DNA of 64,000 nt from Candidatus Latescibacterota bacterium (GTDB lineage: Bacteria; Latescibacterota; UBA2968): NCBI GenBank assembly GCA_965198115.1, contig OZ240241.1, positions 8,160,001-8,224,000 on the forward strand, in the 5' to 3' direction. Position 1 is the first letter of the stretch; each line of letters opens with the position of its first letter. Shown in pieces: positions 7,762 through 64,000 of the stretch. A program made the position numbers and the translations under genes. Under the pieces are notes generated by a model. The model searched no databases and was not told the DNA's origin. It saw only the letters and a program-made list of their open reading frames with translations.

Positions 7762-9695
<1,934 letters not shown>

Positions 9696-42084: not shown

Positions 42085-44633
42085 GGCTCCAGTCGTTCAA
42101 GCATGTCCTGGACAGTTCTGGTAAACGAAGGATCGCCCTTCCAGTCGCGTAGGAAAGACCGCATAGCGCGTTTTGCGCTGATCGTGTCTCGGATGGCGAC
42201 GTAGACGGGGACATATAATAATGTACGAGGACGGGATCGCCCGCCCAGTGGCGCTCGAATCGGCTGTAGGCCACCGTGGCACTGTCGACGGCGGCTCCCG
42301 TCAGGTAGGCGTTTCTGAGGTTGTAATTCGCGACGGCGTGGGTCGAGTCGATGGCCAGTGCGGCGCGATATGACTCGATGGCCTCGTTGATTCGTCCCTC
42401 ATCGACGTAGACGAGGCCGAGATTGTTGTGCGTATCGATATGATCAGGGTCCAGCTTTGTGGCCCTCAGGTATGTCTCGATGGCCTTTTCCCGTCGACCA
42501 ATAGCCTTGTAGCTGTTCGCCAGATTGTACCAGTGGAGCGCGATGTCGGGTTTGAGGTGGGTGGCCATCGTGTAGTCATCCAAGGCGCCCTGGCGATCTC
42601 CCCGGCGCTCCGCGGATAGCCCCCTTCTCACGTGGGCATTGGCGAGCACGCCGATGGCGGGGGCGTGATGGGTCGTGTCCGTGCCCGGTGTTTTGAGGAA
42701 CCGCGTGTAGAGATCGATGGCTTCATCATAGTCGCCTGCTTCGATCCGAAGGTTGCCGAGATTGACGAGTGCTTCCGGGGCGGGGGTGGGGGAGGTCGCT
42801 GCCCGATGCCACACGGCGGCGGCGCTGTCCACCATCCCCATTTCGCGGTAGATGGTGCCCAGGTTGACGTAAGACCGGGGCCGATTCGGGTGAGCTGACA
42901 CCTTGTAGGGCAATCGCCGAGTCGCGGGCGCCCCGGGCCTGGTGCAGGATCGCCAGGTTGTATTGTGCGGCGTAGTCGTCCGGGTCCAATCGCAAGGCTT
43001 CTCGATAGAGGCGCTCGGCTTCGGTGGTGTCCCCTTGCTCGTAGGCGACAAGCCCCAGCCCGTTGAAGGCGTTGGCGAAGTTTGGATGGTAATCGAGCGT
43101 CCGTCGGTAGGCCGCGCGGGCGTCGTCGTGTCGCCCACGGGCGAGAAGCGCTTCACCACGGATCAGATGGGCCTGATGATCGAACGAGCCATACTTCAGT
43201 GCGTTTTCGACGTGCAGGAGCATCGTGTCGTGACGCTTCTGCATCTGGGCGACCCGGGCCCGGACGTAGTGCCAGTCGAAGAAGGTGTTTTGGACCGTAA
43301 TGGCGCACGCCAGGAGCAGAACGACGAGGAGAGTCCGGGTGATCACAGGGCGGGACTCTTCGTGAGTCGATTCCCGAGACGAAAGCCATCCCGCTGCGAG
43401 CCAGAACAGGACGGAGGGGGCCACGCGCTCCCACGGAAACGTGAATAGTCCGAGTCCGATGTAGGTCAGAAGAGTGGTCACGAGGAAAGTCGTGATCATC
43501 GTCTCCCCCTCTGGCGTCGCCCATCGCCGAAAGGCGCTCCTGCCGAGGGTAAACAGGAAACCCAGGAAGAGGATGAACCCCACGGTTCCCGTTTCTGCCC
43601 AGATCCATAACAGGTCGTTGTGGGGCCTCAATGGATTGAATCCTGGTTCGATCATTTTGCCGCCATCGTAGGGGACGTAGGCGAACTCCCAGTTCCCGAG
43701 GCCCACGCCGAGGATCGGCGCGTCGGCGATCATACGCAGAGTCGCGCCCCACATGTGAAGCCTGCCCCTGTCGCCTCCGGGGCGGAAGACGGACGCGATG
43801 GCCGTCCCGACGTCGGTTTTCCGCTCGTCGAATCTCTGAATGTGCGATTCGGTGAATCCTTCCGGGAGGAAGGCAAGCGCCACTACGATCACCAGAGCGA
43901 GCCCCACGGGTCGATAGCGGTCCGTGCGGACCACGGCCAGAATTTGCCCCGTTGTCGATCGCAGTCCCTCTGATGCGGCGGTCAGCACAACGGCGCCTCC
44001 CGATCCCAGACAGAACCCGACCCAGGACGCCCTCGCGCGCGTGTAGACCATCAGGACGACCATGGCCGCGGCTGCCACGGCACCCAGCATCCTGCGCCTC
44101 GGTGTTTTCCCGGTGACGACGAGGATGGCGGCCAGGGGAGCTCCGCACGCCACATAGGCTGCAGCGAGGTTCCGGTAGCCGAAGAAGGAGCTCGGGCGGC
44201 CCGTCGAAGGAATCCAGGTCGGAATCAGTCCGTGATACTCGAAGATGCCCACACAAGCGACCAGCAGGCCTGCTGCGGCGTGAAATCCGAGGAGATGGTC
44301 GAGCCGGTCCTGACGACTGCCGGCTACGACGAGGTAGAACACAACGAGGGTCGTGTATTTTGCGAGATCGTAGGTGGCGCGAAAGGCGTTGGCTGCCCAG
44401 AATGCGGAGGCTGCGAGAATCGCGACGAAACCGAGAAGCATCAGACGGTCCCAACCGGGAGTGCCCAGGCGCAAGACGGTTGGATCTCGGGCTGCGATGG
44501 TGAGAATCGCGATGAGAACGACCTGAAGAAGCAAAAGCCTGGGGAGGAGGGTGTATTCTTCGATTCCGGGGACCAGAAGGAAGGGAATGACGAAGAATCC
44601 GGCGGACAGGAGGCGGGTAATCAGGCGGTCCAT
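42081..44633 (-). pseudogene. Wzy_C + long TPR protein, paralog 7, first in the operon (frameshifts ~42908 and ~42208)
   Basis: PSSFFGYRNLAA, YTRARASW, RPHNDLL..AETG, FTFPWE; TPRs continue in two further frames to ...QDMLERLEP*. Confidence 0.78.
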
Positions 44634-47600
44634 TCCGCGCTACCGGTGCGCAACACGGAAGGTTCTTCCTCGCACAGAGCAAAGGAACGAGGATCCTTTT
44701 CAATCGTAAACTGGTAATTAACAATATGTTGAATATATGGTGTGTGTGGCGATGGCATCTGGTACAGTCGTTGCTTTTCTGGTTGGTGAGGTAGTCGGCA
44801 CACCCCTTTGCGGCTGCCCATCGAACATTCGATAACCGTAGGCTCTCCGAAAAGAGAGGTCAAGCTCCGGCCCCAAGTAGGCCGGCCATCCCAGTAGGTT
44901 CACCCCACAGCCGTTCCCGGCTTGCCCAGCCGGGGATCGCAGGAGTTTGGTTATGCTCACGATGAGCTCAATCATCGGGCCCAAAGGGATCCGCTCGCTC
45001 ACACGGGTGATGCTCTCCCTTCTCTTCCTCTGTTCGGCAAGTTACGCGCAAACTGTAACTGTCCTGCCCGATCAGATCCCCAACGGAATCACAACGCCGT
45101 CCGAATTCAGACAGCGGATCGACATCGTCCTGAACGGCCCCGAGGCCGGTCTGACGGTTTCGTTCACGATCACGCTCCCTCCAGAAGTGAGCCTGGTCAC
45201 GAATTCAGCGACGGTTACCTCCGACAACTCGGCCCTCGTGCCGTTCTTAAAGGGCATTCCGTCGGCCACCCAACTCGCGTTCGGCCTGACCGGTACGGCC
45301 AATGGGCAGAAAGTGAGCGTGGAGCTCGACGTGCGAACGCCTGTGAGTTTTACGGGCATCAGCAGTGGATCAGCGCTCGATACGGCCTACGTCATCGACT
45401 TCGCCGACGACTTCGCATCGAACGTCGACCGTCGCCCGGAAGTCTTCCTCCACCAGAACAAGCAGATTCAGTTCGTGAAGTTTACCTCGCCCGATTCGAC
45501 GATCGGTGATACGACCACGCTCGGTGGACGGCTCTACCACATGGAATTCGAGCCCCAGTTCGGCACCCAGGGTCTGCCCGACCTGGAGCACACGGGGGTG
45601 ACGACGGCGTCTCAGGGGTTTGTGGACAACGCGACGGATGTCACCTACACCTTTTACGTTTCGACGGACTCCACCCTGATTAAGAGTAACTCCCAAACGG
45701 CAGGGGCCCTGTTCACGATTGGAGCGGACGATCAGCCGCTTGTAGGACAGCGTCAAAACCCACGTTTTATCCCAGCGACCTTCATTCGCGAGGACTTCAC
45801 GACAGTATTCGCCGACTCGACCGAGGCGATGATTTCGCTGGCGAACACACCTGACGACGACAACGTCTTCATTTACATGACGTCCGACGTGACGGACGAC
45901 TGGTTCCTCGGACGAAGCGGGCCCCTCCGCGTCTTGCATCCTCCAGAGTTCGTCATCGCCGGCTGGGACTACTACGACGACGGTGGGGATGACTTTAACA
46001 CGACCGGGCTTATTCAGGTGCCCAGCGAGCTGATCGGGGGCGGCGGACAGAAGGACAACAACGATATCACAGTCGATAGCGGTCTCTTCCTGGCCAGGGG
46101 TAGTGCGATACCCCAGGTCGGGTTCAATCCGTCTTCCATATCGAATCTCGACTTGCTTTTCAAAGTGGAAGACTCTGACAACGCGGGAACAGTCGAAGTC
46201 GGGATTTTCCTGCTTTCGACCGCATTTCCGAGTGTGACCTTGGCCGATCTCGATCCGCTCGGGGGTGGTTCTCCAGACACGTTGAGCAACGCCATTCTGG
46301 TAACGTCGACACTTCTGACGGCAGCCGAGCAGGTGTTCGACTTCGAGCCCCTGACACGCGACGCCGTCGCAGACACGATTACGAGTTTCCTCGATCCAGG
46401 GGACTATCACGTCTACTTCGGCGCGATGGATGCCGACGGCAACAAAGCGCTTCACAGGGTGCGCAGAGATCCCTTCGCGAATCCTGGCGTGGATGCTGTC
46501 CTGACGGCCGGACATTCCTCCACGCTCACGCTCGACCTTGCCCAGTTTAACGATTTCGATGGGGACGGCGACCTGGATGTTGAGACAGGCATCGGCTTGT
46601 CGCAGATGATCAACAGCACGAACGGTCTCGGGCTGTCCATTTCACCATCACGACGGATTGTTCCCATTTCCTGGGGTAGGGCCGGAATTGATGGGGACCT
46701 GGACGTGGACAACACGGCGACCCTGGACCTCTATTTCAGCACGCGAAGTGATTTTCGCGAGGCGGGGGCCAGCATTGCCTATACGAGCGGAAACTCCGAC
46801 GGGACGGATCTTCTTTCGGCTATCGCCCAGGGAGGGACCGACACTCACGAAATCGAGACGAACATCGACCTGTCGGACGACCGTCAGTTCGATAATCTGT
46901 TCGAGTGGGATGTCTGGTCCTATATGTCCCCGGAAGGCACGGTGCCCGCAACAGACACGCGCTACTTCATCTATGGCATTCTGAAGGGCGGAGGACCACA
47001 GAGGCTGGTTTCGTTCACGGGATCGGGTGCCCTCAACTTCCAGCACCCGCCGTATGTGATGGTTAACGAACCCCGCAGTGGAACACTCATGCCGTCCACG
47101 AATCAGCCAGTGACTGTCAGCTGGATGTCCGTCGACATTGACAACGGAGGCACACCCGTAACAGGTGTGCCGGCCAATGGCTTGTCGGCCCCGAACACCC
47201 GGAGCAACGCACCGAACATTCGGATTCTGCTGACCTCCGTGAACCTGAGTGGATCCAATGTAACGACCTGGGCCACCATCACGGCCCTCAGCACGAGTCA
47301 GGGACGCCCCATCTGGATCGCGAACTCGACGGATGGATCGCTCGCCGGCGAGATCGAGCTGAACGAGGGCGTCGACTCCAGCTTCGTGTTCCGTGGCGAG
47401 TTTCTCTATGAGAATCTGGGCGGAGCGGCTACCCAGGGCCTGAAGATTGGAGCGGATCTGGATGTCTACATCGCGGTCGACGGAGGAGGGGACGGCAGTC
47501 AGCCGACCGACTTCCATCGCTTTTCGCCCGTGGTGAAGGCAGGCGGAGATATCCGGTTCACGGGCAGCGAACCGACGGCCGCGCCGACGCCGGCCGACGA

Positions 47601-48103
47601 ATGGGTCGTCGCCAACGAACTGAAGGTCACGGTCGGCGAGTTCATCCAGTGGGATATTAGCCCGAATGTCGCGCCCGCCGGAACCAAGGTCGAGATAGCG
47701 AACATCTACGTGACCGTCGATTCGAGTCACTACTCCCCGGTCGACCAAGACCCTGTGGCGCCCGGCATACAGCCCTTCAGTGTCGGGTCGAAGTCGATGC
47801 TGGATACCTCCCTGGTCACGCAGGGCGCGTATCTCGATCCGACGACGGCCTCGACCTGGCGCTTCGACTTCCGATACGACGACAACGGAGGTTCCGGCAT
47901 CACGTTTTTCGACGGAGCGCATCCATTGGCGATCCTCAACCTCCAGGCGCTGACTTTCACGGGCGCTTCGACGATCACGATCGACGACAGCGGGTCTCGA
48001 ACGAGCAATCTTCTGGATGACACGCTTACGGACCTGGATCCCTCTTCCGTATCGACGACGGTAAATATCTCGTGAGAGGATAGCTGCTTTGAGGTGATCG
48101 GAA

Positions 48104-49477
48104 GAGCTATAATCAAAAGGTGTGGAAAAAGAGAAAGGGCGACCCTACCCTTCCCGTGAGATAGTTGATTCACACAAAACCGGGTGAGAGGCCCGGTTGG
48201 GAAGGAGGATCGCCGTGAAGGAACATACGCATAGAGCCCCATTGAAGTCCATGCCGACGTGGGAGACGGTTGACGATTGGATCCGTGAAGAGATCCAGGG
48301 CCGGTTCCAGTCCATTCTGGAGGAGGAGGCGACCGCGTTCTTGGGCCGGTCGTGGTATGAGCGCCGAGCCGAGGTCGATAGCTCCACGGGCTACAGGAAC
48401 GGCTACGGCAAGCCCCGGCGTCTCTCGACGAGCTGCGGAACGATCAAGGTCCGGCGTCCCCGGGTTCGTGGTCTGGAAGAGCGGTTTGAAAGCCGCATCC
48501 TCCCCCTGTTCGCCCGGAGAACCAGGGCCATTGGAGATCTGCTTCCCGACCTTTATCTCCACGGTCTCTCCCAGGGCGACTTCGAGTTGTCTTTGCGTGC
48601 GCTGCTCGGTGATGGCGCGCCGCTTTCGCCGACCTCGATCGCTCGTCTTCGAGGGAAGTGGGAGGTCGACTTCCAGGACTGGAAAGAAAGGCGTCTGGAT
48701 AATCGCGAACTGGTCTACGCCTGGGCTGATGGCATCTACGTCAAAGCCGGGCTCGAGCGCGAGAAGGCGTGTCTGCTGGTCGTGATCGGCGCGATGAGCG
48801 ACGGCAGCAAGGAGATCCTGGCGATAGAACCCGGTTATCGAGAGTCTACAGAATCCTGGCTCACGGTGCTCCGGGATCTCCGGGATCGCGGGCTCGAACA
48901 TCCTGTCCTGATCGCCGCGGACGGGAATATGGGCATCTGGGCGGCCGTTGATCAGGTCTGGCCAGAGAGCCGGCAACAACGGTGCTGGAACCACAAGATC
49001 CTCAACGTGCTCGACAAGGTCGCCAAGCGTGCACAGGCTGAAGCCCGCGCACTGCTCGTCCAGATCCCCTATGCCGGCACGAAAAAGGAGGCCGAGAAGC
49101 TCCGGAAACGCTTTGCCGCACGGTATCGCTCACAGTTCCCTGCCGCCGTGGAGACGCTCGAAAGAGACTGGGATCGGATGGTCACGTTCTACGACTTCCC
49201 GAAGGAACACTGGAAACACCTGAGAACCACGAACGTCGTCGAGAGCCCCTTTGCTTCCGTTCGGCTTCGCACAAACGCCGCCAGGCGATTCAAGAAAGTC
49301 AGGAACGCCACGGCTCTCATCTGGCGTACGCTCAAGGTCGCAGAGAGCCGATTCAGGAAACTCACCGCGCCACACTTGCTACAACAAGTCTACGATCAGA
49401 AACACTCAACCGGACCGCAGGTCGAAACCGGGAAGATGGCCGCCTGATTTCTTTTACACACCTATTGACCTGAACTC
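48104..49477 (+). mobile_element. IS256-family insertion sequence
   Basis: Imperfect 26-bp IRs GAGCTATAATCAAAAGGTGTGGAAAA / GAGTTCAGGTCAATAGGTGTGTAAAA flanking a Mutator-type transposase. Confidence 0.85.
48197..49447 (+). CDS. IS256-family (Mutator) DDE transposase
   Basis: YRNGY, LYLHGLS, WADGIY, AADG, QRCWNHK, RTTNVVES; exact start uncertain. Confidence 0.92.
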   Translation: MGRRIAVKEHTHRAPLKSMPTWETVDDWIREEIQGRFQSILEEEATAFLGRSWYERRAEVDSSTGYRNGYGKPRRLSTSCGTIKVRRPRVRGLEERFESRILPLFARRTRAIGDLLPDLYLHGLSQGDFELSLRALLGDGAPLSPTSIARLRGKWEVDFQDWKERRLDNRELVYAWADGIYVKAGLEREKACLLVVIGAMSDGSKEILAIEPGYRESTESWLTVLRDLRDRGLEHPVLIAADGNMGIWAAVDQVWPESRQQRCWNHKILNVLDKVAKRAQAEARALLVQIPYAGTKKEAEKLRKRFAARYRSQFPAAVETLERDWDRMVTFYDFPKEHWKHLRTTNVVESPFASVRLRTNAARRFKKVRNATALIWRTLKVAESRFRKLTAPHLLQQVYDQKHSTGPQVETGKMAA

Positions 49478-51745
49478 ATCTCATCCAGAACGACTGTCTC
49501 GGGTAGTGTCCCCCTCCAGAATCGACAGACAACTGCGCACCCGTCCGAGGACATCGTGACATTTTCGCTCAGACGTGTTGGCAGCTTTGTAACGTTCACC
49601 GACTCGCTTTTCGAACTGCAGGATACGGATCTGGACAAGGCAGGTGTGCAGGTCATGTCCCACAATGAACTTGGCACGTACGATCTGTTCCAGGTGCTGG
49701 CGGGACGTTGGATCCTCTCCGCCGCTGTCGATCGCTACCTGACAGGGCACGATACACTTGTTGTCTCGCCCGGCCAAGCCCCGATCGGCGCGTTCAACCC
49801 AGTCAAGCTGGGTGATGGTTCGGGATCGGAGCTGATGGGAGGGGACGCTGCAGGCTATAACGACTCGACAGGCGCGTCTCTGCCCGACAACTTCATTGAC
49901 GGATCCGACATCAGTGCGATCAATGCATCGTTGTTCAAGGTTCTGGTTCCTTTCGATCCGGATTACAACACCTTCGCCGACATCAACCAGGACAGCGTCG
50001 TGAACGGCACGGACAAGGATATGGCTACAGCGAACCAGACGAGCAACATCGGCGAGGTCGGCAAGAAGGTGCCCATATTCCCGACGTTCAAACAAGCCGT
50101 GATCACGGGTGACAACACAGGCGCGATGGTCCATCTCGATGGTGTCCCGTCCGAGGAAGTCAAGCCCGGCGAGACGTTCGATGTGAAAGTCGTTGTGGAT
50201 GGGGCGAGCCTCGTCCGAACCTATGAATTCCACGTAAGCTATGATCCGGAAAAGCTCGCCGTGGTGGATCTGGTATCGACGGGAGATCTGTTCACGAACT
50301 ATCTGTTCGACGTCGGCGGGAAAATCCGCGACGGGGACTTCGGAATCGTGAATTCCATCCTGGGACCGACGCCGATCGGAGGTTCCGGATCTGCCGAGTT
50401 GGGAACCGTTCGGTTCAGGGCGATCAGCCGCGCTTCGCAAACACACCTCTGTGTCTCGGACGCCCTCCTGATCAATGTCGAGCACGATGGAGCGACGCCG
50501 CTGCTGGGTGACGCCTTTACGGTATCATTATCCCGCGATCCTATACCCTACCACGACGAGGAGGGTGAGGTCATCTACGGTCTTATCCACAGTGACGTGG
50601 ACGATACGATCGACTTCAACGATTTCATCACGTTTGCCGGCAGTTTCGGCAAGCAAGTCGACGATCCGGGGTACGACGTCAGGGCGGATCTGACCGGCGA
50701 TGACAACGTCGACTTCTCGGATTTCCTGATTTTCTCCCGACACTTCGGCAAGACGGCCGTCGATGTACCGCCATCGGCCAAGCGCACGAAGGTGCTGACG
50801 AAGCCGCTTCCGCCGAAGAACGTCGGTTCGGTCGTGGCTCTGTCGGAGGTCGGAACCAGCAGGTCCGGAGACCCTGTGCACGTGATGCTGGCATTGCAGG
50901 GTGGCGAGACCGTGACGGCGTGGAGTGCTCAGGTCACCTACGATCCGACGGCTTTGGTCTTCAAGGAAGCCCGGTTGACGGATGGATCCCTTCTCACCCT
51001 GAACGGCGAGGCGCCTCTGCTGCTGGTGCAGTCTGACGGTCCTGGCCACGTCAGGGTCGGAAACGCTCTATCCGCCGGCGAACCCGCTTCCGGTTCGGCC
51101 GGTCTCGTGAGTCTGGTCTTCCAGCCTGTTCAGGATGAGTCTCAGCATCACGTGGATCTCCTCGACGCATTCATCTACGATGATCTGGGGCGAAGGACGC
51201 GTGCGCTGGGCGATGGCCCCCTCGTCGTGCGACCACTGCCGGCGGAGTTCGCACTGTATCAGAACTTCCCAAACCCGTTCAACCCCGAAACCCAGATTGC
51301 GTACGACCTGGCCGTCAGGCTGGAGATTTACAGCGTGACGGGACAGATGATTCACGCACTCGTGAGCGAACGTCAACCCGCAGGACGCTACCGCGTCGTG
51401 TGGCGAGGCGACGACGCCTCGGGTAGAAACGTGGCGAGTGGAATCTATTTCTCGAGAATGAGAGCGGGAAGCTACGCGGCTGTCAGAAAATTGATGCTGC
51501 TCAAGTAGGCGGGTTGCGTGCCTCCTCCACGCGGACGCATCGGAGTGAGGAGGTTTCCAACCGCGTTCTGGGCGCAAGCGGGGTTCCAGCCGCCGGTTCA
51601 GCGCTGAGAGAAGTTGCCAGAATCACGAGCTTTCGTCCCAAAGTTTGGCACGGCCATCCCAGTGAATTGAGAATGGGGTGTGAAGAGCTAAGACTGTCGG
51701 CGTGATTGCGTAGCCGGGGACGACTACAGGGCGGAACCGCGGTTA

Positions 51746-53038
51746 GGGTTTGCCACGAAATAAGTGCTGCACTTTTCAAGGTAATGATCTTACGCTCGGA
51801 GTGTGGACGTCGAAACTCTCCGAACGAAGTATGAAGCCTTGGCTCCGGTGCTGACGGAACGCACGCGTCGTCTGTGGGCCGCCACGGAAGCCGAAGCGTT
51901 GGGTCACGGTGGGATCTCGATTGTGGCTCTGGCGACAGGAATGTCCAGAGAGCGGATCTTTCGTGGCATTCAGGAGTTGAGGTCGGACGAACCTTTGGAC
52001 CCGGCTCGCATCCGGCGTCCAGGCGGCGGTCGTAAGCGGAAGGCCGACACGGACCCGACGCTGTGGCAGGACCTGAATGATCTGGTCGAGCCAACGACTG
52101 CGGGGTCGCCTGACGACAATCCTCTGAGATGGACATCGAAGAGCACTCGCAAACTGGCCGCCGAGTTGCAAGCGATGGGGCATTCGGTGAGCCCCAGGAT
52201 CGTTGCCAATCTCCTGCACGAACACGATTACACGCTGCAGGCGAATCGGAAGACAAGGGAGGGATCTGCACACCCGGATCGGGACGCTCAGTTCGTTTAC
52301 CTCGATGATCGGATTAGCCAGCAGCAGCAGCAGGGCCTTCCCGTTATCTCGGTGGACACCAAGAAGAAAGAGTTGATCGGCGACTTCAAGAATCCTGGCC
52401 GAGAATGGCGACCCAAGGGAGACCCGGAGCGTGTGAAGGTACACGATTTCATAGTGCCTGCTCAGGGCAAGGCGATCCCTTATGGAGTGTATGATCTGAG
52501 CCGTGATGAAGGCTGGGTAAGTGTCGGTATCGATCACGACACGGCCAGCTTCGCCGTGAATGCGATCCGAAGTTGGTGGAAGAACATGGGACGGCCCGCC
52601 TACGGCACTTCGACGCATCTGCTAATCACGGCGGACGCAGGCGGCAGCAACGGCGCCAAGACGCGGCTGTGGAAGTGGGAGCTGCAGCGCTTTGCGAATC
52701 GCACTGGCCTGACGATCACCGTATGCCACTACCCTCCTGGCACTAGTAAGTGGAACAAGATCGAACATCGCCTGTTCTCCTTCATCGCTATGAACTGGCG
52801 AGGCAAGCCCCTGGTCAGCCTGGCTGCAACCGTGAATCTCATTGCCGGAACGACCACTCAAGCCGGTCTCCGAGTACGCTCCGAGATCGACAAGCGACCC
52901 TACCCTAACGGGGTCAAGGTGACCGATGAACAGATGACCCAAATCGATCTCACTCCGCACGATTTCCACGGCGACTGGAACTACACGATCCGGCCAATGG
53001 CTCAACATTGAGATCGACCGTTTATTTATTCCGAACCC
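51746..53038 (+). mobile_element. ISAzo13-family IS, copy 2 (1293 bp, intact)
   Basis: Same ends as copy 1; TTA target duplication (51743-45 and 53039-41). Confidence 0.93.
51803..53011 (+). CDS. ISAzo13 DDE transposase (402 aa)
   Basis: ISVDTKKKELIG, PPGTSKWNKIEHRLFS, C-terminal FHGDWNYTI. Confidence 0.93.
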   Translation: MDVETLRTKYEALAPVLTERTRRLWAATEAEALGHGGISIVALATGMSRERIFRGIQELRSDEPLDPARIRRPGGGRKRKADTDPTLWQDLNDLVEPTTAGSPDDNPLRWTSKSTRKLAAELQAMGHSVSPRIVANLLHEHDYTLQANRKTREGSAHPDRDAQFVYLDDRISQQQQQGLPVISVDTKKKELIGDFKNPGREWRPKGDPERVKVHDFIVPAQGKAIPYGVYDLSRDEGWVSVGIDHDTASFAVNAIRSWWKNMGRPAYGTSTHLLITADAGGSNGAKTRLWKWELQRFANRTGLTITVCHYPPGTSKWNKIEHRLFSFIAMNWRGKPLVSLAATVNLIAGTTTQAGLRVRSEIDKRPYPNGVKVTDEQMTQIDLTPHDFHGDWNYTIRPMAQH

Positions 53039-54341
53039 TTAGCCCTTCTGCATCCTAAAGAATCAAACCCCCCTCTGCCGGTCGAGAGTGGGCACATCGT
53101 ATCGATCTGTAAGATGGGTGCTGTGAAAACGGCCGACCGGTCGTGAGGCTCACCCTGTGGTGACGCTGTCTACCAGATCTTGTAGCGGATCGGTGTCGAT
53201 CATCCATCGACAACAAGATGGTGTACACCTACCCCAAGACGCTCCTCGATGGAACACGGCGTAGCGGGGGGCGATAGACACCTTGCAAAAAAGGCTTCGA
53301 TGACCAGTGCCGCGCCTTGGGAGGGTCGGGTATACCCACGATGGGCAGCGACGGGTCAATGTAGCCGGCTTGCCGTCTTGGGAACGGACCGAGTCATAGA
53401 GCGTAGAATACGGCCGACGTGCGAATTCCGTCTTCCTGGAGCGCGGAACAAGGCAGCGCCGGTCCAACTGAGTTTGGGCGAGTCCGGAATCGCGCTTTCT
53501 TCTGGGCAGGCGATGAGGCGAGCGCCAAACCTTGGGTCGTTGGACAAAGGGTGTGAACCCAACCCTCGATCTATGCCCGCTTCAAGGTCTGAGCGAACAC
53601 AACATACTGTACCAGAAGTACGTCCCGATACAAGATGATTGGTGACAGTTCATCAGGAGGTTGCCGTATCGAAGGTCATCTGAATCCCAAATGATCGTCG
53701 CTGCCTCAGGTGTTGGGGAACGCCTGGGCCGCGATGGAGCCGTCGATCTACCGTACGTCGATGGAACGAATCTCTCAGGGGTGGGAGTTACCTGGGAGAT
53801 GTTTCTGTTTCTGGCGGACTGTAGCCTCGGCGAAGACCACACACTTGCGCTCGCAAAGGAGGTCCTCGTGCCAGAATCCAGTGCCCCCTCTTTCCGTGGC
53901 TGAGTACGTCCGAAATGGTGATGCAGGGGGTATCCTGCGCAACCGGTCAGGTGCGTCTCAGAGGTCAGATAATGCTTAAGGTTGGCTTTTACACTGCCGA
54001 TAGTAGGACTACGTATTCGAGGCAGATCCATGTCCATCCGTGCATTCTCGACATCGCTGTTGCCTCGTAAATGGCTGTTCTGGAATGATTTAAATAGAAG
54101 TTTCATAAGAAGCAGACGAACAGAAATCAAAAATCAAACCATAAACGGAGGTGATGCACACGTTGTGTCGTAGGGCGCCGCGATAAGTCGCGTGGGAGGA
54201 TTTCGACGGCGTGAGACGGATTTTCAACCCGGTTTTCGGGACTCGGCTAATACGGACGTTAGTCGACCCGGGGACTTTCGAAGCAATGGAGCGATCGAAC
54301 GCTCCAAAGCAGTTTTCAACAGTCCAAGGAAGGAGCTAGTG

Positions 54342-57300
54342 ATGAAACAGAGGCTCTTGAGTTTAATAGGGATCGTGCTGGTCCTGTTCCTCGCACCGGG
54401 GAACGGTTCGGGCCAGACGATCACCCTGACACCCGATGCGATCCCGAACGGCATCGCGTCGTTGTCTGGGGAACAGTACCACCAGCGGATGGATATTCAG
54501 CTGGGTGGAACAGCTTCGGCTGTTATCAACGCTTTCACGATCACGCTTCCTGCCGAGGTCACCTACGTGGCGACCTCCGGCACGGCCGCACACAATGCTG
54601 CTGGCGCTGGGGTCAGGCTCCAGGCAGTTTTGGGTCAGAATCTCACCTTTGACATCTCTGGTGTTGCGGCGAGCCAGACCCACACGGTCGAGTTCGACGT
54701 GACGACGCCCGCCAGCTTTACCGGGATTCCGACGGGCACGAAGGTGGACACGTTCTACGTGGTCGACTTTAATGACGACGTCGGTTCGGCTCAGGATGTT
54801 GCCGTTGCGAAGCATCAGAATCTGCGTGTCGAGTCGGTGTCCTTCTCGGCTCCGGATTCGACTCAGGGCGACACCACGAGCGCGGGCGGGTGCTTTTACA
54901 AGCTGGCCTTCCCGAGTACGCTTCCTGACTACAGTCATACCTTCACCTCGGGACTGAGTGCCGCTGACCTAGCCGGTCTGGTCCCGATCTTCGCTGATGC
55001 GGCGACGGATATCCAATACACGTTCTATCTGTCGACGGATTCCAGTCTGATCGAACGTCCGCTCACGCTCGCTCCGGCCAGCCACTTCACGCTTTTGGCC
55101 GATCCGACGAGCGGTCCTCTCGCGGGCTCGCGGCAGAATCCTCGATTCATTCCCGCCACGTTCATTCGTGAGGACTTTACGACAGCCTTCGCCACGAACG
55201 CGTCTGATAGCGTCAATGGCGTGATCTCCCTCGCGGGTACGACGGACGACACGGTCTACTTCGTCTACGCGCTTGCAGACCCTGCCACCGGTCGCAATCC
55301 GACGCTCAATGTGGGTAGTGGTGGCGACGGTACCGGCGTAGGTAAAAAGGCTTTTGACCCGACGACGTTCGGCGCCTTTTCCGGCGGCGTGTTCCTCGGA
55401 CGTAGCGGACCGCTTCTCGTGCAGCATCCGCCCGAATTTGTGATCGCCGGGTGGGACTACGATGACGACACCAACGACGACTACGCCACGACCGGAGTCA
55501 TCCAGGTTCCGAGCGACATCAATGGGATGGGGGTGACAGCCGGCAACACGAAGGATAACCGCAACATCACGGTCGATTCGGGTCAATTCGAGCCGAAGGG
55601 AACGACCACGCTGACGACGCTTGCCGGCGGGCTCGTCCCCAAGTCGATCAACACATTCAGCATGCTGTTCGTGGCCGAAGACGCCGACAACCCGAATAAC
55701 TTCCAGATGAACATCATTCTGTCGACGAACAGCGGTCTGACGGTGAATGAACTGTCGGGTGGAGGCATCGATTCGTTCGACGTGGCGAGTTCGATTCGCG
55801 TGGCCGGTACGGACACGCTGACCACGAACCATCGAGTGTTCTCCTTCGATCCGATCGTTCGCGACTCTGCGACCAATCTGATCACCTCGTTCATCGCCGA
55901 AGCGACGTACAGCGTCTACTTCGTGGCGACGGACGGTACGAATCGGACGGTCTACCAGGTTTCGGACGATCCGTTCGCGGCGTCTCCGACGTTCTCGACG
56001 GTGACGGTGGCCCATTCTCCGAACATCGGGCAATTGGACTCCTATTCCGTCAACGACTTCGGCGGGGACGGCGATCTCGACGTGAACACAGGGATCGATC
56101 TTTCTCAGATGTTCTCGACCGCCGCTTTCGCCGGTGGCGACGACGATGGTAAGAATCTGAGTGGCGGCCCCTCCCAGCGGTTCGTGAACATCCACTGGGG
56201 TGGCGGCGGTTTGGACAACGACATCGACGTCGACGACGACGCGACGGTCGAATTCTACTACAGCACCCGTGCGGACTTCAACGGAGCAGGTAAGAGCTTC
56301 GAATTCACGAGTGGCAACTCCGATGGTTCGGATCTGCTTGCTGCCATCGTACAGGGCAACAACGACACGCACCTGATCGGAAGCGTCAGTGAAAATCCCG
56401 ATGGCAAGTTCGACGACAACTTCCAGTGGGATCTCTGGACATACGTCTCTCCGGAAAACACTATTCCGCGCACCGGCGTCAAGTATTTCCTGTATTCGAT
56501 TATGACCGGTGGCACGACCCGTCGTCTCGTTTCGTTCACGGAAGACGGTTCCACCGTTGCTCCAGGCACGACGCCCGTGGGCGTCAACTTCGAGCATTCG
56601 CCCTACGCTCGCGTTATCGAGCCATCCCAGGACATTACCGTGTCCGTCGATGAGCCGGTGAACGTGATCTGGGAGGCGGTCGATGTGGATAACGCCGCAG
56701 CAAGCGGTTTGAGCGCGGTACCTGCTGGGACGAGTGGACGTTCGTCTCCGAACAGCCGGGCCGACTCGCCGAACTTGCGGATCATCTTGACGTCCACCGA
56801 CTTCGGTGAGGTGACCAACTGGGCTACGCTCAACGCTGCGACGGCCCCGGTCTACTTCCTCGGTAACTCCAGCGCCGGTGGTTTCTCTGGTGAGATCGAG
56901 CTCAACGAAGGTGTCGATACCGCTTTCGTCATCCAGGGCAACCGGATGCGGAACGGTGTTCTCGCCAACGCCACGGTGGGTACCGATATGGGCACGAACA
57001 ACGGTCTGGGTACGACCTACTTCGTCTACCTAGCCGTAGATTCGGGTCTGGACGGAACCTCCGCAGCACAGGGTCAGTTCTTTAGCGGTCGTTCGCCGGC
57101 CGTTCGGGCACCTGGCCGTGTGACGTTCACCGGTGTGGTTCCGACTTCTGCTTCGACAAGTGCCAAGTTCGTGATTCCGACGCGTATGACGGCCGTTTCG
57201 GAAGAGCTGATTCGGTACCCGATCGTCCCCGACGAGGGTGACGGCACTGGTGGAACGACTATCGAAGTCGTGAACATCTTCCTCACGGTCGATGCCAGCC

Positions 57301-59646
57301 TCTTCGACGCCGTTGATCAGGATGCGAGTACTGCGGGTATCCAGCCCTTTACGTTGGGCACCAACGGTGCGCTGAGCGCGGCCGATGTCGATCAGGCAGC
57401 CTACATCGACATCAACACGGGTGATCTGCGTCTCGATTTCATCTACGACGTGGGTCTGGCCGGAACCGGTCTGAGCTTCTTCGATGGCGAGCAGGTCCTG
57501 GCAAGCGCCAACCTGCGTGCCAAGTCGATCTCGGGCGGGCCACGACGGCGACGACGATCTCGCTGGACAACAGCGGGACACGCGTCTCCAAGATGATCGA
57601 CGGCAACTTCACCCTCGGTGTGGCCATTCCGGCACCCACGAACGTCAACATCGTAAATCGTGCCGAGGTAACGGGTACGGTCCCGCTCCAGGGTCGAACG
57701 ACCTCGGCGGATACGGTGACGTTCATCCTCCGTGATGTGGGCGACTTCATCCCGGTGACCGATGCGGTGTTCACAGCCGCGAACGACACCCTGCCCAACG
57801 TGCCTGGAATTCAGGTGATCACGTCGGGTGTGAACGGCGACTTCACGCTGACAGCCGTGCCGACGGGCCGTTTCGTCCTGACGGCGCAGGTCCCGCGCCA
57901 CCTGGCGGGTCAAGACACCGTGAATGTCGAGGGTGGTCTGGATGTCTCGGGCGTGCAGCCGACGCTCGACGGAGACGGTGTGGATCGATCGGCGCTGCTC
58001 GCCGGTGACGCTGCCGGATTCAATGACAGCTCAGGTGCTTCGGTGCCGAACAACGTCATCGACGCGGCTGACATCAGCGCCATCGATGCGGCTCTGTTCG
58101 CACAGGTCGGTGACGCAGACTACGATACCTTCGCGGACATCAACCGTGACAACATCGTGAACGGCTCGGACCGAGCCTTCGCGACGGCTAACGTCACGGC
58201 CAACACGGGTGTGGGCGGCGTCAAGCCGGTCTTCCCGACGTTCAAGCAGGTCGTGGTCGACGGCGACAACTCCGAAGCGCGTCTCGTCATCAGTGGCTAT
58301 CCCACTGAGGAAGTGAGCGCTGGTGAGGTGTTCGACGTCACCGTAGCCATCGAAGGTGCTGCTTCTGTCCGCACCTACGAGTTCCACCTCGGCTTCGATC
58401 CCAGCAAGCTGGCGGTCGAGGACGTGGTGCCGGGTTCGCTGTTCGAGAACTACACCGCCGACATGGGCGGCAGGGTTCGCGAAGGTGACTTCGGTATCGT
58501 GAACTCGATTCTGGGCCTGACACCGGTGGGCGCTTCGGGTGAAGCTACCCTGGCCACCGTCCGGTTCCGGGCCATCAGCCGGTCGTCCGAGACCATGCTC
58601 GAGCTGACGGACGCGCTCCTGATCGACGTCGATCACGAGGGTGCCAAGCCCGAACTGGCCGGTGAAGCGATGATCGTCCTGTCCAACGATCCGATCGTCT
58701 ACCACGACGCAGCGGGTCAGACGGTACACGGACTGATCCTCGCCGACGCCGACCCGAAGGTCGACTTCAACGACTTCGTCGCGTTTGCCCAGTCCTTCGG
58801 GACCTCCGCCGGTATGGAGGCCTACGATATGCGGGCAGACTTCAACGGAGACGACACAGTGAACTTCGCCGACTTTGTGATGCTGTCGCAGAGCTTCGGC
58901 AAGGTCGCGGTGGACGCTCCTTCGGCACGTCGCGCCGGTAAGTCTGTGGCACCAGCCGGCGTGAATACCAATGCAACGATGACACTTCAGGTGGATGGGG
59001 AAGCTCGAATGGGCGAACTGCTGACGCTGAACGCTCAAGTCGGGCAAACGCAGGCTCTGATGGGTTGGGGACTGACGGTGCAGTACGATCCCACGATGTA
59101 CGAGTTCGTGGAAGCGAGTGCGCCCGAAGGCAACCTGCTCGAATCAGCCGGCGCGAGTGCTCCGCTCTTCCCACAGCGCCACACCGGGTGAGGTGACCCT
59201 CGCCAGCGCCGTAGGCGGCGAGGGTAACCTGGCTCAGCTGGTGTTCCGTCCAATCGGCGAGTTCGAGGACGCCACGTTCGACATCGCGAACGGTATCGTC
59301 TTCGATTCCAGCCAGTTGACGAACCCGGCGGGTGCCGCTGAGGCCCTGAATGTGCGGGCAATCCCGACCGCCTTCGCACTCAACCAGAACTTCCCGAACC
59401 CCTTCAACCCCCCAGACGACGATTTCCTACGATTTGGCCGAGGGGGGGCAGGTCCACCTCGAGATCTACAACGTGATGGGCCAGCTCGTGAGTTCGTTGG
59501 TTTCGGAGAATCAGCCCGCCGGCCGCTACCAGGTCGTGTGGAACGGTAACGATGCGGTTGGCCGACAGGTCGCCAGCGGCATCTACTTCTACCGTCTGAA
59601 CACGTCCGGCTTCAAGGCGGTCCGGAAACTGATGCTCCTGAAGTAG
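54342..59646 (+). CDS. Large secreted cohesin/dockerin/FlgD-Ig-CTD surface protein B (~1770 aa), paralog of A, with three single-base frameshifts (~57541, ~59171, ~59411)
   Basis: AGGAAGGAG RBS; signal peptide MKQRLLSLIGIVLVLFLAPG; shares RQNPRFIPATFIREDF, HPPEFVIAGWDY and GEIELNEGVD with A; dockerin-like ADFNGDDTVNFADF; CTD FALNQNFPNP...RKLMLLK. Confidence 0.82.
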
Positions 59647-59685
59647 GAATAAGTTTCCGGAAAGGCAGTTCCTTTCCTTGGATGA

Positions 59686-59727
59686 GGATGGGCGGATCGG
59701 CGCTTACCAGCGCTGATCCGCCTGTCC
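59686..59727 (+). other. Strong stem-loop after gene B, without a U-tract
   Basis: GGCGGATCGGCGCT-TACC-AGCGCTGATCCGCC, extendable with G-U pairs. Confidence 0.7.
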
Positions 59728-59912
59728 GATATCCGGGCTTCGTGTCCGATCTCACCCCTCGGGCCTGTATCTGGGCCACTTCCTGATCCACCCCCAGGTT
59801 GGTAGTTTTTCAGCGTGACCGTGGTTTTCCCGACGTCCCATCGTTCTAGCCGTGGCACGTGTCTTGCAATTCCCGCAGTGGGCATCTCCGCATTCCACCT
59901 GGGCAAGGTTAC

Positions 59913-62900
59913 ATGACAACACTTCGCATTCCCATCCTGCTCCTGCTGCTCGGTCTCCTTTCGGGCCCCGTCGGCGCGGCCAAGAATGGTCAGTCCGAAC
60001 TGGAGCTCCGTCAGCCGAATACGACGAACAACAACATCTCGGCACAGGTCGGTGAGACCGTTCAGGTCGAGGTTTTCATCCGAGGACGTGGCGAGCAGAT
60101 TACGGGTGTTCAGCTGTTCTTCAGCTTCGACGACACGTTCCTCGAGCTCGTCCCGGTCGGTCCAGTCGGCCAATGGGCCGCGGCCCTTTACACCCGGTGG
60201 ATACATCAACGGCACGGTCTTCCGGAACGACTCCATGGATGACCAGATCGGGAACAGCAACGCAAACAAGCTCCCGTTCTACCAGATGCTCTACCAGGAG
60301 CAGGTCAGCGGCTTCGGGGGGGACCCAGGTTGCCCGGATCGGTGACGGGACGATCGCCCGGTTTTCTGTGCGCATCATTCGGAAACCGGCGAGTGGCAAC
60401 GCCAACATACGAATCGACCCGTCATCCCCGATTGGTTCCCAGACAGGCTTCTTCATTGTTTCTGATCCGGGGACGACCTATACGTTCAGGAACCTCACGG
60501 GCCTGACACTCAATGTCCAGGGTGTCGATCTGTCGGTCCGTCTGCCAGACCTGTTTCTCCTTCCCGGCACGATCGACAATTCTCTCGACCTGGACGATTT
60601 CATCGACGATCCCGTCAGCCCCGATTCGACGATCGTTTGGACCAACAGCGCACCCGATCCGGCCGGCATCGCGGTTTTGATCGATCCCACGACCCACGTG
60701 GTTACCGCAAACGCCCAGAGCTTCATTGGCATTACGGAGGTCGTCGTCACGTTAGCTACGACGCTCCAGGATACACTGTTCGACACGATCAACGTGATCG
60801 TGGACACACCTCCTACGTTCGACGAGTCGGCCTTCCCGGACACGATACGTTTTCTGGAGGATGGCACCGACTCTAGCCTTGTGCTTCAGGCTTCGGATCT
60901 GGACGATCCGGCTGGTGGAACGCTTGTCTTTGATTCACCGGACACAGCCACCAGTACCTTCGCCTCGATCGCCACGGGATCGGGTTTGAGTCGTCGTGTG
61001 ACGTTTACCGCGACACCGAACTTTTCGGGACAGGAACTGAGAACATTTACAGTAAGAGACGAATTCGGTCTGGCGGATACCACGCAAGTGCTGGTCATCG
61101 TGGACGGTGAGAACGATCCACCCGAGTTTTTCGAGCCGTTTCCGACCGTGACAGTAGGAGCCCTGGGTCAGGCCGTGTTAACGATGACCGACTTTGTTCG
61201 CGACGTGGACGACCCGTTCAACGCCTTGAGTTTCTCCTTTTCTGGCTCCGACAGTGTGGCCTTCGATGTGAGCTCCGCGAACACTCGGATGACGATCACG
61301 CCCGTGCCTCCTTTCATGGGTACCCGGACCGTGATCGTCGTCGTCCAGGACACCTCCTAGGCGACGGATACCCAAAACATCACCGTTCAGGTTCAGCCGC
61401 CCGACGATCCACAAGCCCCTCAGGTGCTCGTGCCGTTCCTAAAGATGGATGTCATCGCCGGATCGAGCCGCACCGATGCCGACCTCGACACGCTCGTGAC
61501 GGACATCGACACGCCGCTGAATCAGCTGAGCTGGCGCACTTCGCCACTCGTGCTGTCGAACGCGGACGCGAATCAGCTGAGTGCCAGCAGGGTTCTATCG
61601 CTCGGATCGACGGCCAGTGCAATCGGGTTCGAGCGGGCCACGCTCACCGTATCGGATCCCCTGAGTCTTTCCGATACGCTGTCCGTGAGAATCTATTCTG
61701 CATCTCCGGTTACGGGCATCCCCGTCGCGGGAGGCATGCCCGATCTGGTGATCCCGGCAGGCGAGGTCGATTCTTTAGATCTCGATTTCTTCTCTTTCGA
61801 TGCGACCGATGCGCAGGATCAGCTCGCGTGGTCGGCAACCGGCCAGGTGGGCGTGACTGTTCAGATTGACCCAGTCACCCACATCGCCCGCTTCGTGGCG
61901 CCGACAGCGATCACGGATCCGACGGAAGACATCGTTCTGGAAGTGCGGGATCCCGATGGAAACACCGCGACCGATACGATCACGGTAACGACCGTTCCAC
62001 TCGGCGGTGTCCTCGTCGACGCGGACGTTCTCGGTGGAACCAGGACGATCATCGTGGGGCGGCCCGACACGCTGGCCCTGACCCCCGCGCTCATCGTCGG
62101 CGACTCGTCTAATATTCTCTGGAGCGTGGAATCGGATGAGCCTTCGGTCGTTCTTGCCCAGGTCATCGGACGAACGTCGTTGCAGCTGATCGGCCTCGTC
62201 GAGGGAGACGTCGACGTAGCGATCACGGCGACGGACACCGCGAGCGAAAACAGCACGGGAGCAACCCTGAAAGTTCGTTCGCGGCGGACGATCGCCGAAG
62301 ACATTCAAGTGAGGGACATCGGTCCTCTGGTGTTGACGGCGAACCGGGACACGACGATCGACCTGGCGGCGCTGATCATCTCTGGCAACTCGCAGAACAT
62401 CGTATTCACCACACCCGGACACGCGAATATCGCCGTTGAAATCGACACGACCAACCAGGAGGCGATCATCCGACCCGTCTCCGGATTTATCGGAGACGCG
62501 GGCTCCCTCGTTTTTCAGGCCGAAGACCTCGTCACGGGTGCGACGGGACTGAGTCTGGCCACACCTGTGACGGTGCAGGGGTCGCCCAGCGAAGGGCGCG
62601 ATCTGATCGAGGTCCGGCTGCTGGTGAACCCTATTCGCAACAATTTCCTCGACGCGTATGTCATTTCGCGCCGGGATCTTCTCGCCGAGCCAACGCTGGC
62701 CATTTTGAGAGAAGGTGAGACGGCACGGCGGAATCTGAGTGTGAATCCGGTCGCGGAACTGGAAGGGACGTGGGTGGGTGACGTCGTCATCGGGGATGCC
62801 GTGACGGGGACCGTTCGGGTTTTCGTTACGGGCATCACGGCCGAAACACGAATCGCACTTACGGACACGGTCCGCATCGACATCGCCGAAGGCGGTATTT

Positions 62901-63808
62901 CGGATCAGTTCACGGTCTCGAACGAAAACGTGCTGGTCCAGATGCCATCCGGAAGTCTGAGCGATCGGGCGCACATCGCGCTTTTCGAGGGATCAGACGG
63001 CCCCGGAGTCTCCAGGGCGAAGTCAGCCGTCGGCGAGATCGTTCAGATGTCGCCCGTCTATCGTATCCACGGAACGCGTGGTCACGTGACCGAGCCGGGT
63101 CTCATCCGGTTCCTCCAGCCTGTCGAGGGCGGTGTCGGAGTTTACCGTCAGGAGATCACCGGCTGGGTTTACGTCAGCGACTACGCTGCCGAAGGCACCC
63201 CCGTGGGTTGGGTGGACGCGTTCGGGAGCTATGCGCTGTTCGCCGATCGCGTGGGACCGCAGATTCCATATCCGACGGCTTCCGAGGATGGGACCTCGCT
63301 CGTGTTCGATGCGACAGAGGCAGGCAGCGGGATCGACCCGGACCGCCTCGAGTTGACGGTCGGCGGTCAGGCCGTGACCGCATCCTATCGTCCCGGTGTC
63401 GGGATCGTCTGGTCTCCGAGAGGGACCTACGACGACGTGGCATCGGTCGAACTGGTCGTCGAGGATTTTGCGGGCAACGCGACCGTTTGGGAGGGAGACG
63501 TAGACCTCGGAACGCTGATCAGCCGTCCGCGGGAGCTCGCCCTTCATCAGAACTTCCCGAATCCGTTCAACCCACAAACGATCATCGAATTTGAACTGCC
63601 ATCCGACGGACACGTCCGAATCGACGTATACAACCTGCTCGGACAGCAAGTGCGCGGACTCGTTGCGGGTCCACAGGGAGCCGGTCGTCACACCGTCTCG
63701 TGGGATGCGCGTGACGATCAGGGCAGACTGGTCGCCGCTGGTGTTTACCTCTACCGCCTGACTGCGGACAGCCGTGTTCTCATCCGCAAGATGTTGCTGC
63801 TGAAATGA
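59913..63808 (+). CDS. Large secreted protein C (~1300 aa): N-terminal cohesin-like domain, cadherin/Ig-like repeats, FlgD-Ig CTD; frameshifts ~60170 and ~60320, in-frame TAG 61358-61360
   Basis: Signal peptide; VGETVQVEV..GVQLFFSFDDTFLE; repeats LDLDDFIDD, TPNFSG..FTVRD, NDPP, FVRDVDD; CTD LHQNFPNPFNP...RKMLLLK. Confidence 0.78.
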
Positions 63809-63818
63809 CCATAGGCCG

Positions 63819-64000
63819 ATGACCATGAGACATCTGACAGCGACCGCAATCCTTCTACTGTGCCTGGTGACCGCCGGATGCGGTGGGGGAACCGGAACGG
63901 GCGGCACGTTCGGATCCTCGGAGACGCTGACGTTCGAGGGCTGGGAGGCCTACCGCGGGGCGATCGAGGCCACGGATTACGATGCGGCAGAGAAGCTGTT
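63819..64000 (+). CDS. Putative lipoprotein, possibly TPR-like (partial)
   Basis: MTMRHLTATAILLLCLVTAG/CGGG lipobox, 10 nt after the stop of gene C; open to the window edge. Confidence 0.7.
   Translation, partial: MTMRHLTATAILLLCLVTAGCGGGTGTGGTFGSSETLTFEGWEAYRGAIEATDYDAAEKL

Follow-up and report, generated by a model that had tools for sequence, protein, structure and literature searches.

A predicted non-cellulolytic cohesin-dockerin scaffold and its surface anchor, conserved in the Latescibacterota and pseudogenised in one genome

The window analyzed here, a 64,000-nucleotide stretch from the genome of a Candidatus Latescibacterota bacterium (contig OZ240241.1), carries on its plus strand a trio of large genes that we call A (44953-51508), B (54342-59646) and C (59913-63808). 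A and B encode chains of cohesin and dockerin modules, and C encodes a stalked cohesin. None of the three is intact in the window: the trio is no longer made full-length in this genome, which is loaded with insertion sequences (IS). As judged from sequence, A and B together with C appear to form a non-cellulolytic cohesin-dockerin surface scaffold and anchor pair that is conserved in the phylum and pseudogenised here. The features of the locus are as follows (cohA, coh2 and coh3 are cohesins, doc1 and doc2 dockerins; T9SS, type IX secretion system):

44953-48072, plus strand: gene A, 5' part; signal peptide, Ig-like domain D1, related repeats D2-D5, cohA (47596-48069)
48072-48103, unstranded: 32-bp stub foreign to gene A, present at 7 genomic sites
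48104-49477, plus strand: IS256/Mutator-family element within gene A; transposase 48197-49447 (PF00872, E 1e-60)
49478-51508, plus strand: gene A, 3' part; X 49481-49834, doc1 49826-50071, coh2 50108-50536, doc2 50537-50773, coh3 50813-51232, T9SS-type tail 51236-51505
51743-53042, plus strand: ISAzo13-family element between A and B (PF07592, E 3e-140)
53950-54341, plus strand: upstream/leader region of B, with Shine-Dalgarno-like AAGGAAGGAG
54342-59646, plus strand: gene B (pseudogene); signal peptide, D1 54417-54821, D2-D5 54822-57152, cohA 57162-57649, X 57653-57994, doc1 57989-58225, coh2 58262-58687, doc2 58688-58924, coh3 58958-59357, tail 59377-59643
59913-63808, plus strand: gene C (pseudogene); signal peptide, N-terminal SdbA-like cohesin ~59988-60526, Ig/cadherin-like stalk, T9SS-type tail 63524-63805

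A and B are paralogues (42-49% identical), and their homologues share one module order: signal peptide, N region, cohA, X, doc1, coh2, doc2, coh3, tail. An earlier sequence-only reading of this DNA had proposed the same order (signal peptide, ~900 aa, cohesin-like, Ig-like, dockerin-like, cohesin-like, dockerin-like, cohesin-like, FlgD-Ig C-terminal domain), which proves to be real, and the dockerin motifs that it quoted are present. Its description of two paralogous ~1700-aa proteins holds for the paralogy; neither protein is full-length here, with the IS256-family element in A and three frameshifts in B. In a congener (genome G001) all three genes are intact and in the same order (A 1716 aa, B 1787 aa, C 1297 aa), with 76-91% identity to the window: 83% for the 5' part of A (against residues 1-1040), 76% for its 3' part, which has a 12-nt in-frame deletion near 51312, and 77-91% for B.

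We examined the module folds in an AlphaFold model of residues 945-1787 of G001 B (mean predicted local confidence, pLDDT, 81; predicted template-modelling score, pTM, 0.49, so that inter-domain positions are not fixed). The three modules that the sequence-only reading had called cohesin-like fold as cohesins, at Z 14-16 and root-mean-square deviation (rmsd) 2.1-2.3: cohA matches 4uyq (Z 15.9, rmsd 2.1), coh2 matches 2vo8 (Z 14.0, rmsd 2.3) and coh3 matches 2jh2 (Z 15.9, rmsd 2.3). coh2 also matches Pfam family PF00963, and cohA contains insertions. The contiguous unit cohA-X-doc1 (model residues 4-353) aligns to the Coh9-X-DocII segment of CipA in 4fl4_L (Z 14.5, 270 residues, rmsd 6.3) and to 3kcp (Z 14.2).

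The dockerin-like modules are likewise matched by type II dockerins (doc2 profile E 8e-8 to 2e-7), show two helices in the model, and keep their Ca-loop residues, with canonical second repeats and atypical first loops. The second repeat of doc1 has a canonical Ca loop conserved in 44-45 of 45 sequences; doc2 has Phe at position 10 of both repeats and, in A and B, the F10-x-D12-F13 pattern of the client dockerins described below. These differences in Ca-loop and Phe features indicate that doc1 and doc2 belong to two different dockerin classes, and two classes fit tiered docking as well as self-polymerisation. The dockerin-cohesin linkers are 21-32 aa long and all contain Lys or Arg (45/45 and 42/42), and an F-K motif after doc1 is nearly fixed.

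The N region of ~900 aa consists of one Ig-like domain, D1, and four related beta-rich repeats, D2-D5. It has no Pfam match, and its model (1084 aa) is all-beta with pLDDT 73. D1 resembles the Ig domains of pilins and adhesins (Z 6.5-9.4, the best match being 9.4). D2-D5 are mutually homologous repeats of ~190 aa with a common acidic motif (hhalign probability 79-91%, E 1e-5 to 1e-6). The sequence-only reading had allowed that this region might be a hydrolase; no hydrolase or other catalytic family or fold was found, in searches that barely probed residues 160-935 and in which the repeats were not folded singly. For the 1084-aa model, Foldseek found nothing but long matches of low TM (<=0.17) to unrelated multi-Ig proteins, and the matches of a wide VIA search were taken up by D1 and cohA, leaving residues 160-935 barely tested. 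ESM Atlas matches were all below 0.9 (best 0.82 and 0.86), with Kre9/KNH-like and Big_7 domains (0.76-0.77) as leads only. As a whole, the A and B proteins are acidic, nearly Cys-free, all-beta and built from repeats.

Gene C supplies the second half of the proposed pair. Its product has an N-terminal cohesin, then an Ig stalk, then a tail, and no dockerin was detected in it. In profile searches with this cohesin, SdbA and other type II anchoring cohesins rank at the top (2bm3, E 2.3e-4). In each of 9 further genomes inspected, the gene right after an A/B-type gene is of C type; in 3 of them the two genes have been duplicated together. Among 168 genomes of the phylum, 43 have A/B and C, 5 have A/B only, 4 have C only and 116 have neither, where a strong C match means E<=1e-29, a threshold set after seeing the matches, and where the present genome (G000) was added by synteny. 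This phylum-wide pairing, together with the SdbA-like cohesin of C, lends support to hetero-assembly of A/B with C, one of the options raised in the sequence-only reading.

The tails of B and C match TIGR04183, the T9SS type A sorting domain, in their G001 versions (35.4 and 38.4 bits; cut-off 23). The genome encodes SprA (513 bits, cut-off 200), 8 PorV-family genes above cut-off and a C25-family protease. The search for GldN gave no match in any control genome and is therefore uninformative.

The N region of A/B occurs in 48 of the 168 genomes, in five families; in two related genera, the A/B family was not found in any of the genomes (21/21 and 15/15). When 1.84 billion representatives were searched, 56 matches came back, among them a distant ~1340-aa form with the shorter layout N-cohA-X-doc1-coh-tail. 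Of 49 close homologues, 4 bear the name Ca. Latescibacteria or Latescibacterota in their source. In a midpoint-rooted FastTree of 46 rows, the doc2-coh3 unit is limited to one clade among the full-length rows (the motif label for this unit missed at least one member), and is thus likely to be a later addition. Tail-less forms stand at three places in the tree, and the tail-less paralogues retain both dockerins. The present genome has a third paralogue, D, whose frameshifted halves lie 1.75 Mb apart (G000:C1:5912471-5915067 and G000:C1:7661421-7663711, both on the minus strand); intact D-type proteins of relatives are without a T9SS tail and end in a short hydrophobic, possibly amphipathic segment.

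doc2 is not confined to A and B. A two-repeat doc2 pattern finds 46 complete motifs in the genome and 0 in the reversed-protein control, a count of the kind suggested with the sequence-only reading. Thirty of the 46 stand no more than 7 residues before a stop, 6 are near an N-terminus, 8 are internal and precede a cohesin, and 2 are near an end; the surface Phe/Asp positions of the module are symmetric and hardly vary. Open reading frames (ORFs) from dockerin loci, along with neighboring frames and a few proteins for comparison, were scanned with Pfam in sets of 57, 35 and 8; the domains seen are HYDIN/ASH Ig, NHL, Kelch, LRR, FG-GAP, fn3 and CARDB, together with peptidases M10, M28 and S8. 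No glycoside hydrolase or carbohydrate-binding module (CBM) family was found at E<=1e-5 among the ORFs scanned at dockerin loci, in a genome where many ORFs are fragments; this agrees with the earlier view that the complex is not cellulolytic. Most cohesin-like modules belong to proteins with a tail, among them a cohesin-plus-tail protein of ~280 aa and a cohesin-dockerin adaptor. Across 34 chosen genomes, families f1-f3 have 38-121 copies of doc2, f4 has 9-27 and f10 has 1; cohesins are present in 34/34, including 17 where A/B was not found. Because doc2 is abundant and cohesins are kept where A/B was not found, A and B are members of the doc2 system and not its hub; a hub role was rejected on the 43-121 doc2 copies in those 17 genomes.

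Two other proteins of this system were noted in passing. An intact, acidic 1659-aa protein of another family (L074:70-5046; G000:C1:6987369-6992345) ends in a doc2-coh3-tail cassette, has a degenerate first loop like that of A/B doc2, and may be a major surface protein; in genomes without detected A/B there are large proteins whose cohesin matches strongly, often encoded as tandem pairs. A small protein with signal peptide, cohesin and T9SS tail (L043:88-951; G000:C1:1278187-1279050) could be an anchor dedicated to doc2 clients. Most f1/f2 genomes tested have comparable frames, about 270-380 aa long and with a matching cohesin, and some have several.

The breakage of all three genes was absent from the sequence-only reading. 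A runs into a stop at 48075, followed by the 32-bp foreign stub, likely a remnant of a mobile-element end, and the IS256-family element, and resumes at 49478. Compared with G001, B has lost 1 nt near 57539 and 5 nt near 59171 and has gained 1 nt near 59408; in C the reading frame changes near 60160 and again near 60320, and a TAG stands at 61358-61360. Logan contigs from two runs of one sample, possibly the source sample and hence not independent confirmation, reproduce 53015-64000, 44600-48098 and 49449-51770 without a single difference or gap; they end at the IS borders and none spans the IS site. Because these contigs reproduce the window sequence, the lesions are probably in the DNA itself. 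Sequencing error as the origin of the breaks is disfavored by this match and by the intact long frames found elsewhere in the genome (RpoB, RpoC, SprA and C25, 1309-2138 aa).

No excess of change is seen at conserved columns: B differs at 7 of 221, where an intact homologue differs at 10, and the corresponding figures for A are 17 and 18. This indicates that inactivation is recent; long decay of A/B was rejected on the same ground. Three flanking ligase genes are frameshifted too. The 8.43-Mb genome holds 133 near-full, near-identical copies of the IS256-family element and 73 near-full ISAzo13-type copies. It has undergone massive IS expansion (8.4 Mb vs 5.6 Mb in the congener), with many surface genes in fragments, and thus illustrates the loss of a conserved surface structure during IS expansion.

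Several neighbors of the trio deserve mention. One further feature adjoins gene A:

28090-44633, minus strand: seven O-antigen-ligase (Wzy_C) genes in a divergently oriented array, the majority carrying TPR tails

These genes are candidate oligosaccharyltransferases or ligases, and their synteny is kept in G001, G036 and G080; relative to G001, two of the seven are frameshifted. Altogether at least 9 paralogous O-antigen-ligase/TPR genes and an initiating sugar transferase surround the locus (28090-44633, minus strand, and ~5-12 kb past the window end), an unusual expansion; 7+2 Wzy_C(-TPR) genes flank the locus in families f1 and f2, and the array was not seen beside the inspected f3, f4 and f10 copies. 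A third transposase (DUF772/DDE_Tnp_1, two frames) lies inside the array at 38704-40068 (plus strand). Downstream of C (63823 onward; L023:5234-7305) come a TPR lipoprotein and a 463-aa secreted protein without Pfam or NCBIfam match, both conserved in G001, G036 and G080; G051 has a comparable small TPR gene after C. With parA/parB (15599-17234, minus strand) and groEL (8073-9695, plus strand) ~30 kb upstream, the locus may lie near the replication origin. The leader of B is strongly conserved in G001 and partially in G036, whose A-B intergenic region (L025:6278-8489) holds an apparent duplicated block of ~400 nt. An Rfam scan of 44000-64000 gave no match, for the B leader included, and promoter and terminator scans gave results at chance level.

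We propose, with about even confidence, that A and B are non-catalytic, scaffoldin-like, T9SS-exported proteins whose X-dockerin docks on the N-terminal cohesin of C, and that they were recently broken in this genome; the intact copies in relatives likely build a snap-together cell-surface scaffold. The proteins would be exported by Sec and then translocated by the T9SS through their tails. C would be held at the surface, displaying its SdbA-like cohesin on the Ig stalk, and Ca-loaded X-doc1 would bind that cohesin, on the model of CipA X-DocII with SdbA. The later-added doc2-coh3 unit would plug A and B into a genome-wide display system, comprising ~45 adhesin-like or peptidase proteins with doc2 and a handful of tail-bearing proteins with coh3-type sockets, and the five N-terminal beta domains may serve as a structural or adhesive arm.

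A number of observations weigh against this proposal. The A tail of G001 scores 21.9 bits with TIGR04183, just below the cut-off, and the PorU-like protein scores below its own. The first Ca loop of doc1 is split by an insertion and that of doc2 lacks its first Asp. doc1 could instead bind coh2, its constant follower, if the cassette order is taken as a guide, and partner choice among the dockerins and cohesins is predicted only. Co-occurrence of neighbors among related genomes is not independent evidence, the counts depend on a C threshold chosen afterwards, and families f1 and f2 have one C gene per two or three A/B-type genes. Finally, doc2 stays at 43-121 copies in the 17 genomes without detected A/B.

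How else might such chains be used? A and B could be S-layer-like subunits, doc2 (or doc1) binding coh3 (or coh2) of the next molecule in a Ca-dependent, cell-covering mesh, analogous in role to the T9SS-exported TfsA/TfsB of Tannerella and compatible with anchoring via C. Tandem paralogues with T9SS-type tails, the conserved leader ahead of B, and acidic, nearly Cys-free, all-beta, repeat-built proteins would suit such a layer, as would the ligase/oligosaccharyltransferase-like array in f1/f2, and TfsA/TfsB are described as T9SS-dependent (PMC4175972). The client-like F10-x-D12-F13 of A/B doc2 may fit the coh3 of its own family. In codon use B resembles genes of high expression, at the 96.7th and 99.9th percentile among 3363 ORFs, but A (~50th) and C (62nd) show no such bias and the codon signal is weak in this genome. 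Moreover, the glycosylation motif D-[ST]-[AILVMT] is unenriched in A and B (p 0.23 and 0.50) and enriched in C only (p 0.004), no S-layer protein is among the top fold matches (a search that barely tested residues 160-935), the ligase array was not seen at the inspected f3, f4 and f10 copies, and the A/B family was not found in two related genera. The sequence-only reading had been led toward self-polymerisation by the presence of cohesin and dockerin on one chain, which it wrongly took to be unusual: most scaffoldins carry both, according to passages in PMC12484212 and PMC3413522. We consider the mesh possible but doubtful. A combined picture, with a self-assembling, Ca-dependent outer coat of A/B on C stalks and doc2 as a general surface-address tag, seems to us somewhat less probable again; if true, 40-120 proteins per genome without a T9SS tail would be exported or held via tail-bearing cohesin proteins, so that a layer of the cell envelope would derive from the cellulosome and type IX secretion would offer a piggy-back route.

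Docking might also occur in cis, each dockerin clasping the next cohesin of its own chain and so holding the passenger after linker cleavage, or blocking the socket until export. The order doc-linker-coh-tail, which A/B have twice and which returns in the short forms of f4/f10 and in 5 or more other tail-bearing proteins here, the basic residues of every linker, the near-fixed F-K after doc1 and the C25-family protease are consistent with such a clasp. Nearly all of the 36 proteins with a terminal doc2 are without a following cohesin, however, and a dockerin-free cohesin-plus-tail protein exists, so that docking in trans is needed anyway; linker cleavage is hypothetical, and the monomer model leaves inter-domain positions unfixed. 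We therefore judge the clasp unlikely. Less likely still, the modules would be non-docking leftovers, Ca-binding and Ig-like spacers in long fibrillar adhesins, as the degenerate first Ca loops, the pilin/adhesin-like D1, the insertions in cohA and an excess of dockerins over cohesins of about 4-20 to 1 in some genomes might suggest. Against this, doc2 is terminal and tag-like in 36 of 46 cases, with its near-invariant surface Phe/Asp, cohesins are kept in every genome tested, and tail-less paralogues keep both dockerins. The least probable reading is that of an ordinary cellulosome for polysaccharide breakdown, or that the N-terminal region conceals a hydrolase. Cellulosome-affiliated enzymes have been reported for Latescibacteria (Farag 2017, at second hand in a passage of PMC7081726), BNR/propeller domains occur in a few dockerin-tagged proteins, and catalytic domains could be missed in a genome where fragmented ORFs are common; but the enzymes at the scanned dockerin loci are peptidases and not glycoside hydrolases, and the N region is made of four mutually homologous beta-rich repeats and an Ig domain.

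The proposed docking of A and B on C can be set beside several known systems. Cohesin-dockerin systems beyond cellulose degraders have been predicted repeatedly, and in the passages cited here the bacterial pairings remain predictions. Our literature search on Latescibacterota cohesins or T9SS found nothing; Farag 2017 or Peer 2009 may hold a prior description, and the main text of Youssef 2015 has 0 occurrences of the searched terms. In Tannerella forsythia, two large T9SS-exported surface proteins, TfsA and TfsB, make one layer (PMC4175972 and PMC8550257). No homology of A/B with TfsA/TfsB surfaced in any search, none of which was a direct comparison, and the Tannerella glycosylation motif shows enrichment in neither A nor B. 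TfsA and TfsB are not known to carry cohesins or dockerins. Also comparable are Ca. Stygibacter (Cloacimonadota), a non-clostridial uncultured lineage for which a cellulosome-like system is predicted, with a scaffoldin bearing a C-terminal domain and with dockerin-tagged proteins (passage in PMC8542988), and the scaffoldin-like proteins of ANME archaea, with a dockerin and several cohesins, proposed to act in non-cellulolytic surface display (passage in PMC9012536). Both are separate protein families, CBM-bearing with GH18/GH57 clients in one case and archaeal in the other, and a conserved primary-plus-anchor gene pair or a D2-D5 arm is not apparent in the descriptions consulted.

Among cellulosomal scaffoldins, ScaB of Acetivibrio cellulolyticus and ScaC/ScaH of Ruminococcus flavefaciens combine on one chain cohesins with a dockerin of other specificity (passages in PMC3413522 and PMC12484212); unlike them, A and B have two dockerin classes per chain (specificities predicted only), their own secretion/anchor tail and a diderm host. 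The nearest likeness is to CipA of Clostridium thermocellum, also a non-catalytic chain with cohesins and a dockerin, to which cohA-X-doc1 aligns in the model, and to SdbA, whose type of cohesin gives the first matches to that of C. In contrast to CipA, the X-dockerin of A and B is internal and not C-terminal, there is a second dockerin, only three dissimilar cohesins and no CBM3, and a 900-aa N-terminal repeat arm is present; the tail is a T9SS sorting domain instead of an SLH or sortase signal, and the tagged clients are adhesin-like proteins or peptidases instead of glycoside hydrolases. Where type IX secretion is concerned, the locus prompts one to ask how the dockerin-tagged proteins that have no tail, dozens in number, reach the surface or stay on it. 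The parts encoded by A, B and C mirror a two-tier cellulosome without enzymes, with a CipA-like X-dockerin, an SdbA-like stalked cohesin and a second, public dockerin class. The locus presents a small conserved core: next to the CipA-like Coh-X-Doc protein is encoded the SdbA-like anchor on its stalk, and two classes of dockerin and four types of cohesin are involved.

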